A stretch of DNA of 64,000 nucleotides, taken from Microgenomates group bacterium RBG_16_45_19. Lineage in GTDB: Bacteria; Patescibacteriota; Microgenomatia; UBA1400; RBG-16-45-19. The stretch spans positions 21,869-85,868 of the forward strand of contig MHDC01000040.1 in assembly GCA_001803415.1 (NCBI GenBank), in the 5' to 3' direction. The notes beneath the pieces were generated by a model, which made no database searches, was not told where the DNA came from, and saw only the letters and a program-made list of their open reading frames with translations. The position numbers and the translations under genes are program-made. This document shows positions 52,693 to 55,252 of this stretch, piece by piece (within the stretch, counting starts at the first letter, position 1; each line of letters begins with the position of its first letter).

Positions 52693-53566
52693 CGAAATTA
52701 AAGACCAACAAGTGGTGGTTCAGACCGTCGGCGACTTTGCCAATTCCTTGCAACAGATTGCCGCCGCCCGGATGGTTAAACTCCGTCGTACCAACCTAGC
52801 CTCCCGCCGTTTTGTCGAAGAAGCCACTCTGATTCTACGTGAACTACACCTGGAACGTCTCCAACAATGGGAAAAAGATTTGGCTCGTGGTCGCCTAGCC
52901 AAGAAACGACGCCGGCTGACCTCTTCATCCACCCAAACCGCTATCTTTGTGATTACCTCCAACCAGGGTCTCTGCGGTAGTTATAATAACGAGATTTTTG
53001 ATCGAGTTGACCAATGTCTCAAAGAGTTCCCCCAAGCCGATTACTATGTCTTAGGTCGTAAAGGCCAAAATTACTTTAATCACCTTAAATTAAAGCGTCC
53101 TATTAATTATTATCCCTACCCCCTCTCTGAAGCCGTCAGTTTAGCCGAGCTCCAGCCGCTCATTGGTATGTTTTTCTACTATCAACAAATTTATCTCATT
53201 TACTCTCATTACCTTAACACCGCCACTCGTCAAGTGGTTTTTGTTGAACTGGCCGTACCCCACTTGGGTGAAATTGAAGCAGAAAAAATCAAAACTGAAG
53301 GTAAATATCTCTTCGAGCCGTCAATCGACGAACTAATTGACCAAGTCTCGGAGCGAATTCGCTATGCTCTCTTTCGACAACAGATTCTCGATTCACGACT
53401 GTCCCTTTACACCGCCCAAATGGTCGCCATGAAAACCGCCTCTGATAACGCCGGCACCCTCCTGACTGATCTTAAATTAGCCTACAATAAAGCCAGACGT
53501 AAATTAGTCGATAAAAAAATTAGTGAAGTCCAAGCTGGACGTAGCCTTTGGGAGACTAATGACTAA
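52679..53566 (+). CDS. F1-type ATPase gamma subunit paralog (second set)
   Basis: N-terminal helix ([31 protein letters not shown]) and C-terminal [32 protein letters not shown] 52679 overlaps the alpha stop by 14 nt; the track start is 52646. Confidence 0.85.
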
Positions 53567-54980
53567 AACCTTACCCTTAAATCCCCAAGCCAAACCCCCA
53601 GCGCTTAAAACCGGCCGGATCACAGCTATTAAAGGCGCGGTGGTTGATGTCCATTTCCCCTTAAGTCTGCCGGACATTTATCATGCTCTCATTGTTCCCC
53701 TTAACCCTCCAGTGACTTTAGAAGTTTACGAACATTTAGCCAGTCACACCGCCCGCTGTCTCTCGATGCAGCCAACTACTGGCCTTAAATTAGGCTTATC
53801 GGTCCAGGATACCGGCGACGTGCTCCATGTGCCCGTTGGCGAACAACTCCTCGGCCGGGTGATCAACGTCTTTGGTCAACCCATCGATCGGGCTGGACCC
53901 ATTAAAACCCTAATGTCCGCCCCGATTCATGTCAAAAGCCCCGGATTTGTGGCCGTTAAAAGCCCCGCCGAAATTATCGAAACCGGCATCAAAGTCATTG
54001 ACTTTTTTACCCCCTTCCTTAAAGGCGGCAAAATCGGTTTCTTTGGTGGTGCCGGTGTTGGTAAAACCCAATTGGTCACCGAAATTATCCATAACACCAC
54101 CATCAAACATGGCACTCGTTCCGTCTTTGGTGGGGTCGGCGAACGTACTCGGGAAGGGACCGACCTTTATCTGACCCTTAAAGAAACCAAAGTCTTAGAC
54201 AATGTCGCCGTGATCTTAGGTCAAATGAATGAATATCCGGCCATGCGTTTTCGCACCCCCCTGACAGCGGTGACCGTTGCCGAATATTTACGCGATTTAA
54301 CCGGTAAAGAAGTCTTGCTCTTTATTGATAACATCTTCCGCTTCATCCAAGCCGGCGCCGAGATTGCCACCGTTCTCGGTCGGATTCCCTCGGAAACCGG
54401 TTACCAATCTACCATTAACTCCGAACTGGGTGAAATCCAGGAACGAATCGTCTCCACTGACAAAGGCTCGATCACTTCCGTTCAAGCCGTCTACGTTCCG
54501 GCTGACGACTTTTCTGATCCGGCCATTCAAGCCGTTTTTTCTCACCTTGATTCCATCGTCGTTTTGTCCCGCAAAATCGCTCAGCAAAAAATTTACCCCG
54601 CCATGGATACCTTAGCTTCCAGCGCCTCTTTGGATAAAACCATCATCGGTGAAGACCACTATCAAGTCCTACGCCAAGTCTTACAAATTTTAGAACGCCA
54701 CAAATCCCTCCAAAACATCATTGCCATTTTGGGAGAAGGGGAGTTATCGGAGTTAGAACGGGTCACCGTCAGTCGGGCTAAAAAATTGATCAAGTTTTTT
54801 TCTCAACCTTTTTTCACCGCCGAGCAATTCACTAATGTACCGGGTAAATATATTGCCCTACCCGACACTATCGCCGGGGCCAAAGCCATTGTTTCCGGTG
54901 AGTATGACGACCTTTCTGACGAAGCTTTTTATATGGTTGGCACGGTGGCTGAGGCCTTGGCCAAAGCCAAAGCCAGTTAG
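53559..54980 (+). CDS. F1-type ATPase beta subunit paralog (second set)
   Basis: Walker [22 protein letters not shown], Walker [23 protein letters not shown]. The DELSEED-equivalent loop reads GELSELE. ATG 53559 (ATGACTAA overlap with the gamma stop, GGAG 4 nt upstream); the track start is 53523. Confidence 0.92.
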
Positions 54981-54982
54981 CT

Positions 54983-55252
54983 ATGCCAGACGAAGTCTTT
55001 AATTTGGTTATAGTTACCCCCGAAACCACTGTCTACGAAGGCCAAGTGGCCAAACTGATTGCCCCCGGCATCTATCAAGACATTGCCATTCTCCCTAACC
55101 ATACTCCGCTTTACGCTCAACTCATCAAAGGCCAGATCCGTTTGACTGATTCGACCGGTCAGGTGGAAACGTTTACCATTGACGGCGGCATCATCAGAGT
55201 CAAACACAATCACGTTTCCGTTATTGTCGGTTTCCACGGTCACTCACCTTAA
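54983..55252 (+). CDS. F1-type ATPase epsilon subunit paralog, beta-sandwich only (second set)
   Basis: 89 aa. LVIVTPETTVYEGQVAKLIAPGIYQDIAILPNHTPL aligns with the AtpC N-domain. The protein ends right after the sandwich, with no C-terminal helical hairpin. Confidence 0.8.
   Translation: MPDEVFNLVIVTPETTVYEGQVAKLIAPGIYQDIAILPNHTPLYAQLIKGQIRLTDSTGQVETFTIDGGIIRVKHNHVSVIVGFHGHSP

Follow-up and report, generated by a model that had tools for sequence, protein, structure and literature searches.

Does an F-type ATPase that lacks the inhibitory arm of its epsilon subunit burn ATP rather than make it? This question is raised by a 64,000-nucleotide window (the whole stretch of DNA analysed here) of Microgenomates group bacterium RBG_16_45_19, which belongs to the candidate phyla radiation, or Patescibacteria. 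F-type ATPases are textbook ion-coupled rotary enzymes, and the window carries two F-type clusters, both on the + strand: a canonical operon and a tightly packed second cluster of seven genes, which encode, in order, a fusion of immunoglobulin-like (Ig-like) domains to a c-like subunit, followed by b, delta, alpha, gamma, beta and epsilon (hereafter b2 to eps2, with beta1 and eps1 for the canonical copies). A preliminary description had proposed that the second F1 head has lost a brake on ATP hydrolysis, with a trimmed epsilon and an altered DELSEED loop in beta, and that this fits an enzyme meant to hydrolyse ATP. We find that eps2 is a complete one-domain epsilon and that the second F-ATPase, judging from its gene content, probably works in the hydrolysis direction only. 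The stronger evidence for this direction lies outside the eps2 and beta2 coordinates, in the absence of an a-subunit and of the c-subunit carboxylate.

The C-terminal helical hairpin of epsilon is an ATPase-inhibitory element that reaches the DELSEED region of beta, as seen in the E. coli (3OAA) and PS3 (4XD7) structures, and in known enzymes the N-terminal beta-sandwich clamps gamma to the c-ring. The eps2 protein (54983-55252, +; 89 residues) had been described as ending after the sandwich, and protein families and structure prediction agree. Its sole Pfam match is to PF02823, at residues 6-82 (E 2e-18; 66.4 bits, the cutoff being 27), and the Pfam scan returned no match to PF00401, the C-terminal two-helix hairpin. 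Only positions 2-78 of the 130 in NCBIfam model TIGR01216 are covered by eps2 (60.5 bits, under the 67.25 cutoff), compared with positions 2-129 (99.9 bits) for the full-length eps1 (16095-16526, +; 143 residues), whose helical C-terminal domain lies at about nucleotides 16347-16523. The BLASTP alignment between the two copies is confined to the N-terminal 78 residues, at 32% identity, and sequence matches in the PDB span residues 5-81 of E. coli epsilon. The AlphaFold2 model of eps2, obtained with 19 homologues as input (predicted local distance difference test, pLDDT, 90.7), has eight strands and no helix. With Foldseek, it superposes on the N-terminal domain of E. coli epsilon at 0.7-0.8 A, and matches the engineered C-terminal-deletion epsilon of Bacillus PS3 (8yh8_H) with a template modelling score of 0.84.

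Is this truncation a property of one contig or of a lineage? Orthologous loci were gathered by exact look-up of beta2 homologues and by a scan of a genome collection with a gamma2 alignment. About 25 separate loci, belonging to Microgenomates, Beckwithbacteria, Berkelbacteria, CPR2 and other Patescibacteria, share this gene order. In a neighbour-joining tree, to be read with caution given its limited sampling, the beta2 proteins group together as a single clade whose sister is the canonical betas (beta1 of the window, that of locus L074, and those of Firmicutes). By sequence, the second cluster is an ancient F-type ATPase paralogue conserved across Patescibacteria. In all 24 non-redundant orthologous loci, epsilon ends 0-12 residues past the conserved VGF of the last strand, and it ends 0-16 residues past the same motif in 19 further protein clusters; where orthologues have longer epsilon open reading frames (ORFs), the added length consists of N-terminal extensions. 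The strongest epsilon matches of a profile search against 1.84 billion representatives also stop at the sandwich, and the inhibitory hairpin is absent in every sampled member of the second clade. A tblastn search with the C-terminal domain of eps1 revealed no remnant close to any second cluster. The DNA downstream of eps2 is occupied by a conserved convergent TMEM260-like gene of 675 residues, which does not start at the eps2 stop codon, as had been stated, but ends there, the two stops overlapping in TTAA (55249-55252). Neither frameshifted helices downstream nor a full-length epsilon among the 24 orthologous loci, the two outcomes that would speak against a genuine truncation, were found. 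We conclude that eps2 is a whole beta-sandwich domain, and that its short length reflects neither decay nor a frameshift. One hit of 136 residues, P0282, which among the few references used is closest to eps2, was set aside as an ordinary full-length epsilon, encoded on a 1.8-kilobase (kb) contig and not in a second-type cluster.

The catalytic subunit beta2 (53559-54980, +; 473 residues from the ATG, an alternative upstream GTG start at 53523 being possible) scores 605.9 bits with NCBIfam atpD TIGR01039, over the 462.85 cutoff. It is 51% identical to beta1 (14692-16083, +; 463 residues; atpD, 760 bits), and more than 100 orthologues are 65-83% identical to it; a protein of the RBG_16_45_19 genome matches it at 100% identity. 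The substitution reported for its loop is readily seen in the alignment, where EGELSELER of beta2 faces IDELSPEDK of beta1: the DELSEED-equivalent loop reads GELSELE in beta2 (residues 394-400; 54738-54758, +) and DELSPED in beta1 (nucleotides 15841-15861). Across 115 proteins of the beta2 clade, the consensus is E, then G (78%) or D (17%), then ELSE, a variable position (Q, A or other), and EK. The clade-wide change thus consists of a sixth position that is not acidic and of an E at the end, the ELSE core being kept, and the first-position G (GELSExE) is confined to the Microgenomates subclade, the deeper Berkelbacteria/CPR2 branch having DELSExE. Comparison with characterised F1 enzymes confirmed the sandwich-only eps2, and the loop change is real and mild. 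The catalytic machinery is conserved: beta2 retains its P-loop and AVYVPADD, and alpha2 (51067-52692, +; 541 residues; NCBIfam atpA TIGR00962, 520.5 bits, over the 484.45 cutoff) retains GDRKTGKS, the Arg finger SVSRIG and VIYDDLTK. With the P-loops, catalytic Glu, Walker B and Arg finger of alpha2/beta2 all intact, the F1 head of the second cluster looks catalytically competent. Its central stalk is gamma2 (52646-53566, +; Pfam PF00231, E 5e-42), for which the start of the orthologues corresponds to the Met at 52679.

Two components are missing from the membrane part. A phmmer scan detected no a-subunit in the second cluster, either of the window or of the approximately 25 orthologous loci; a-subunit matches were confined to two canonical operons, that of the window and that of locus L015, the latter lying 4.4 kb from the L015 second cluster. 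The c-like subunit is the C-terminal part of the fusion protein (47911-49881, +; 656 residues), which comprises a signal peptide, about five Ig-like domains, a proline/threonine-rich linker and the c-like hairpin (about nucleotides 49660-49878). Its AlphaFold2 model (pLDDT 76) shows a signal-like helix (residues 2-19), about five Ig-like beta-sandwiches, the linker, which is disordered (about residues 322-353), and a C-terminal helical hairpin (residues 582-653), leaving an ectodomain of about 550 residues between the two helical ends. Foldseek matches of this model include tandem-Ig proteins, S-layer proteins and invasin. The Pfam matches, Big_1 and ATP-synt_C, are both under cutoff, and the more than 80 homologues are annotated as hypothetical protein or subunit c. 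The hairpin is c-like in its GxGxGxG first helix and its invariant RNP loop, on which F1 docks and which is nearly identical to the canonical loop. The position of the canonical ion-binding Glu is occupied by V, I, L or A, and no D or E was found in helix 2 of any of 53 homologues. The second cluster thus lacks the a-subunit (PF00119) and the c-subunit carboxylate of an ion-coupled F1Fo, and possesses its peripheral stalk, b and delta. The b2 protein (49952-50470, +) has a hydrophobic N-terminal helix followed by a long helical region. Several NCBIfam models of F0F1 subunit B match it weakly, none reaching its cutoff (best E 1e-6), and the place of b2 in the cluster and its single N-terminal hydrophobic helix are kept across loci. 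The full-length OSCP/delta subunit delta2 (50474-51064, +; 196 residues) matches PF00213 over residues 21-177 (E 1.5e-14, 54.9 bits against a 22.3 cutoff).

Because neither an a-subunit nor a c-subunit carboxylate is present, an ion gradient presumably cannot drive the complex, and, with no ion drive and a competent-looking F1 head, the complex should work only as an ATPase. The explanation that we favour, and consider rather likely, is that the second cluster encodes an ATP-driven machine that is not coupled to ions, and whose c-like subunit, probably assembled into a ring, bears Ig-like domains at the cell surface. In such a machine, eps2 would link gamma2 to the ring of c-like hairpins as a pure rotor coupling, and would exert no epsilon-type autoinhibition. 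ATP hydrolysis would put torque on the putative ring and, through it, on the extracellular Ig-like domains, which amount to about 550 residues in each subunit and are probably glycosylated. A ratchet between synthesis and hydrolysis would be useless in an enzyme that would make no ATP and have no gradient to protect. The absent hairpin and the relaxed loop fit an enzyme with no synthesis mode to protect, and neither alone proves direction. More tentatively, the locus might encode an undescribed rotary nanomachine. In it, an unbraked F1 would turn, or put torque on, an ion-blind c-like ring carrying about five O-glycosylated Ig-like domains per subunit, and would serve as a surface rotor or torque transducer for attachment, motility or host-cell manipulation, with an origin independent of, or an ancient relationship to, the mycoplasma F1-like X0 ATPases.

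TMEM260-like genes, resembling protein O-mannosyltransferases, flank the second cluster on both sides (44699-46702 and 55249-57276, both on the - strand), and in locus L004 such a gene (5467-7359) stands between delta2 and alpha2. These neighbours, together with the proline/threonine-rich linker of the fusion, suggest that its ectodomain is O-glycosylated.

Several observations weigh against the reading of an ion-uncoupled ATP burner, or against the use of epsilon and the DELSEED loop as its signature. The canonical operon of the Patescibacteria locus L074, with a, Glu-bearing c, b, delta, alpha and gamma genes and a beta reading EELSDED, encodes an epsilon of 81 residues. The complete canonical operon of L075, with atpI, a, Glu-bearing c, b, delta, alpha, gamma and a beta reading DELSEDD, encodes one of 80 residues, with no coding remnant of the C-terminal domain downstream. 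Since both enzymes appear ion-coupled and have an acidic DELSEED, truncation need not relate to direction. These two loci served as the short-epsilon controls; L076, with its epsilon at the contig end, and the canonical Bacteroidales loci L034-L036, whose beta and epsilon lie outside the stretches examined, were left out. Conversely, the mycoplasma F1-like ATPases, regarded as hydrolysis-only, keep the two C-terminal helices of their epsilon-like subunit and the DELSEED signature of their beta-like subunit (PMC3369863). The sixth position of the loop is also non-acidic in yeast mitochondria (DELSEQD) and Firmicutes (DELDDND), and canonical copies vary (DELDDND, DELSPED), working synthases showing similar variation; on sequence, the beta2 loop is altered mildly, inside natural variation. 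In addition, an a-like partner may be encoded elsewhere in the genome, and the putative c-like ring may not truly rotate against the stalk and b2, because no a-subunit offers b2 an evident stator in the membrane. The preliminary description was nevertheless probably right in its conclusion: the loss of the hairpin is conserved and hydrolysis-only operation very probable, but the trimmed epsilon and the loop do not by themselves diagnose direction, as L074, L075, the mycoplasma enzymes and the mildness of the loop change make clear.

The same controls give substance to the most serious alternative, which we nonetheless regard as unlikely: that loss of the epsilon C-terminal domain is neutral streamlining, recurrent in small genomes and independent of direction, and that the loop has undergone ordinary drift. 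Short epsilons are indeed common, about 100 of the top 150 epsilon representatives having at most 110 residues and 25 of the 28 epsilons closest to the L074 type being short, and NCBIfam holds curated short-epsilon models, such as NF009983 (88 positions). Together with the short epsilons of L074 and L075 and the DELSEQD and DELDDND loops of working synthases, these figures fit streamlining and drift. However, truncation is universal and old within the beta2 clade rather than sporadic, and it accompanies the loss of both the a-subunit and the c carboxylate. In addition, the same genome retains a full-length epsilon in its canonical operon, and the non-acidic sixth position and terminal E are clade-wide.

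A second alternative, which we find improbable, is that regulation was replaced rather than lost, hydrolysis being restrained by additions to gamma2 and alpha2, by MgADP inhibition or by reversible detachment of F1. All gamma2 orthologues carry a lysine/arginine-rich insertion after the N-terminal helix (about 52850-52940, residues 70-97 approximately, in the window), which canonical gamma does not have and which could be regulatory or face the membrane or the ring. The alpha2 protein begins with an extension of about 45 residues rich in S, T and P (51067-51210), at the end of alpha that normally binds delta; alpha2 orthologues total 535-694 residues, those of other lineages reaching 583-694. 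An ATP-limited fermentative cell would moreover be expected to control a futile ATPase, an argument also made in the mycoplasma work, where F1 detachment is proposed. Against this, the extensions vary in length and are of low complexity, and contact of the insertions with the catalytic sites is purely conjectural.

It is much less probable still that the second F1 is ion-coupled after all, by borrowing the a-subunit or the whole Fo of the canonical operon, or through an unrecognised ion site. A canonical operon is available in the same genome, beta2 and alpha2 score high enough for the NCBIfam F0F1 equivalog models, and the cluster still encodes b2 and delta2. Yet the presence of its own c-like protein, b and delta speaks against a shared Fo, the c-like protein carries a 550-residue ectodomain, none of the 53 c-like hairpins has a helix-2 carboxylate, and no a-subunit gene accompanies the cluster in about 25 loci. 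Finally, a truncation of eps2 through frameshift, misassembly or pseudogenisation can be dismissed for practical purposes, since the same end point recurs in 24 independent assemblies of different lineages, tblastn found no remnant, and a conserved convergent gene fills the downstream DNA.

Is an ion-uncoupled F-type ATPase of this kind already known? The closest in working mode are the F1-like X0 ATPases of mycoplasmas, Type 3, associated with MIB-MIP, and Type 2, the G1-ATPase of Mycoplasma mobile gliding (PMC3369863, PMC12994834, PMC11864180). Both they and the Patescibacteria system consist of a second, seven-gene F-type-derived cluster beside a genuine F1Fo operon in a small-genome, host-dependent bacterium. 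Both have alpha-, beta-, gamma- and epsilon-like subunits with intact Walker motifs and no recognisable a-subunit, and in both ATP hydrolysis is thought to power a cell-surface function. The fusion also displays the layout of an N-terminal helix, an ectodomain and a hairpin, a likeness to MMCAP2_0577/MMOB1650 that is one of architecture alone. By contrast, the mycoplasma X0 consists of a 12-transmembrane protein and a small cytoplasmic protein, without b or delta (PMC12994834), whereas the core Patescibacteria cluster has no 12-transmembrane ORF and has b2 and delta2. Its two-transmembrane protein, unlike the mycoplasma counterpart, is recognisably c-like, with the GxGxGxG helix and the RNP loop. 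The epsilon-like subunit of mycoplasmas retains two helices, and their beta-like subunit the DELSEED signature (PMC3369863), whereas eps2 is without helices. The alpha2 and beta2 subunits, which pass the atpA and atpD cutoffs, are far less diverged than the mycoplasma subunits. Membership of the second cluster in Type 2 or Type 3 was rejected, since the inventory differs and scores were too low for MSC_0618 (414.8 against 570), MSC_0619 (257.6 against 520), MMOB1670 (420.6 against 850) and MMOB1660 (348.8 against 600).

The N-ATPases resemble the second cluster in forming a second F-type operon beside the canonical one, thought to encode an ATP-driven pump. They differ in having ion-binding a- and c-subunits, AtpQ and AtpR, no delta, and the order atpDCQRBEFAG, whereas the second cluster has a delta and another order. 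This difference in order, and low scores for the alternative beta (520.6 against 752), alpha (467.5 against 750.5), gamma (36.6 against 282) and epsilon (20.7 against 100) models, led us to reject membership in this family as well.

For epsilon itself, one close counterpart is man-made. Deletions of the epsilon C-terminal domain abolish epsilon autoinhibition and keep rotor coupling, and eps2 is the natural structural equivalent of the engineered deletion in the Bacillus PS3 F1Fo (PDB 8yh8). Compared with the PS3 construct, however, the eps2 deletion is natural, ancient and clade-wide, and occurs in a complex without an a-subunit or a c carboxylate. The natural short epsilons of the L074 and L075 operons have the same one-domain build and end just past the last strand; these operons carry an a-subunit, a Glu-bearing c and an acidic DELSEED, which the second cluster does not. 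The short-epsilon equivalog NF009983 (PRK13449) was rejected as a home for eps2 (41.7 bits against a cutoff of 106), which belongs to a separate lineage.

In the literature available as open full text, subscription-only articles being outside our reach, we found no description of a second Patescibacteria F-type cluster or of a c-subunit::Ig-like fusion, and the full-text search gave no usable published statement on naturally short epsilons; Beam et al. 2020 do not discuss ATP synthase. Taken together, these comparisons indicate that the second cluster is best described as an F-type-derived ATPase uncoupled from ions.

To our knowledge, the only well-documented redeployments of the F1 motor are the gliding and antibody-cleavage ATPases of mycoplasmas. 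The second cluster would be a second one, wider, with dozens of species-level genomes in several Patescibacteria lineages, and far less diverged; because a recognisable c-like hairpin, b and delta are still present, the route that led from a synthase to a motor is directly legible in its sequences. A tail-less epsilon combined with a relaxed DELSEED constitutes a natural experiment on the purpose of epsilon autoinhibition. Meanwhile, short-epsilon canonical operons and long-epsilon hydrolytic mycoplasma enzymes caution against inferring direction from epsilon length. The cluster also points to an ATP-consuming surface machine in Patescibacteria, which are regarded as episymbionts short of ATP.

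The makeup of the second cluster is not rigid, and it accommodates insertions and rearrangement. In L001 (4813-6222), additional genes lie between the fusion and b2, and a 2.5-kb uncharacterised gap occupies this place in L008 (3710-6235). In L006, three genes (8329-9935), one of them encoding a His_Phos_1 phosphatase, separate gamma2 from beta2. In L014, L024 and L030, 1-2.4 kb separate beta2 from eps2, and in L020 and L028 a gamma2-beta2-eps2 module precedes fusion-b2-delta2-alpha2. A scan of the second cluster for promoters and terminators returned nothing above the shuffled expectation.

Just downstream of the second cluster, and of the convergent TMEM260-like gene, lies a gene for a VirD4/TrwB-like coupling ATPase (57279-59477, -; DUF87, TrwB_AAD_bind), found at the same position in the Microgenomates loci L001, L004, L008, L009, L012, L015 and L021. 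Directly upstream of the fusion are two divergent small genes (46699-47870, -) encoding proteins of 212 and 178 residues with no Pfam match; this pair is kept in Microgenomates loci and absent from the Berkelbacteria and CPR2 loci. In CPR2 and related loci, genes for surface proteins with WxL-like, dockerin-like and Ig-like features are found near the second cluster (L002, 1453-3687; L006, 15167-17360; L073, 11742-13007), a neighbourhood that fits a role at the cell surface.

The canonical operon of the window has the order a, c, b, short delta, alpha, gamma, beta1 and eps1. Its a-subunit gene (10445-11260, +; Pfam PF00119) is the sole a gene of the window, and its c-subunit gene (11290-11526, +; Pfam PF00137), with the Glu in AFAEAI, is the sole c gene with a carboxylate. 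The canonical delta (11990-12280) is only about 96 residues long and matches the OSCP profile at positions 103-172 of 172 only. Short deltas also occur in the canonical Patescibacteria operons L074 (129 residues) and L076 (122 residues), delta2 being full-length. The canonical Patescibacteria enzyme is suspected to run in reverse, the respiratory chain being mostly missing (PMC11665869); the canonical copy of the window, which has kept its brake, may thus itself run in reverse, and this too weakens any inference of direction from the epsilon and loop features of the second cluster.

Finally, GC skew is negative in every 2-kb bin of the window (-0.10 to -0.30) and most large ORFs are on the + strand, a strong strand asymmetry like that reported for another Microgenomates genome (PMC7143001).

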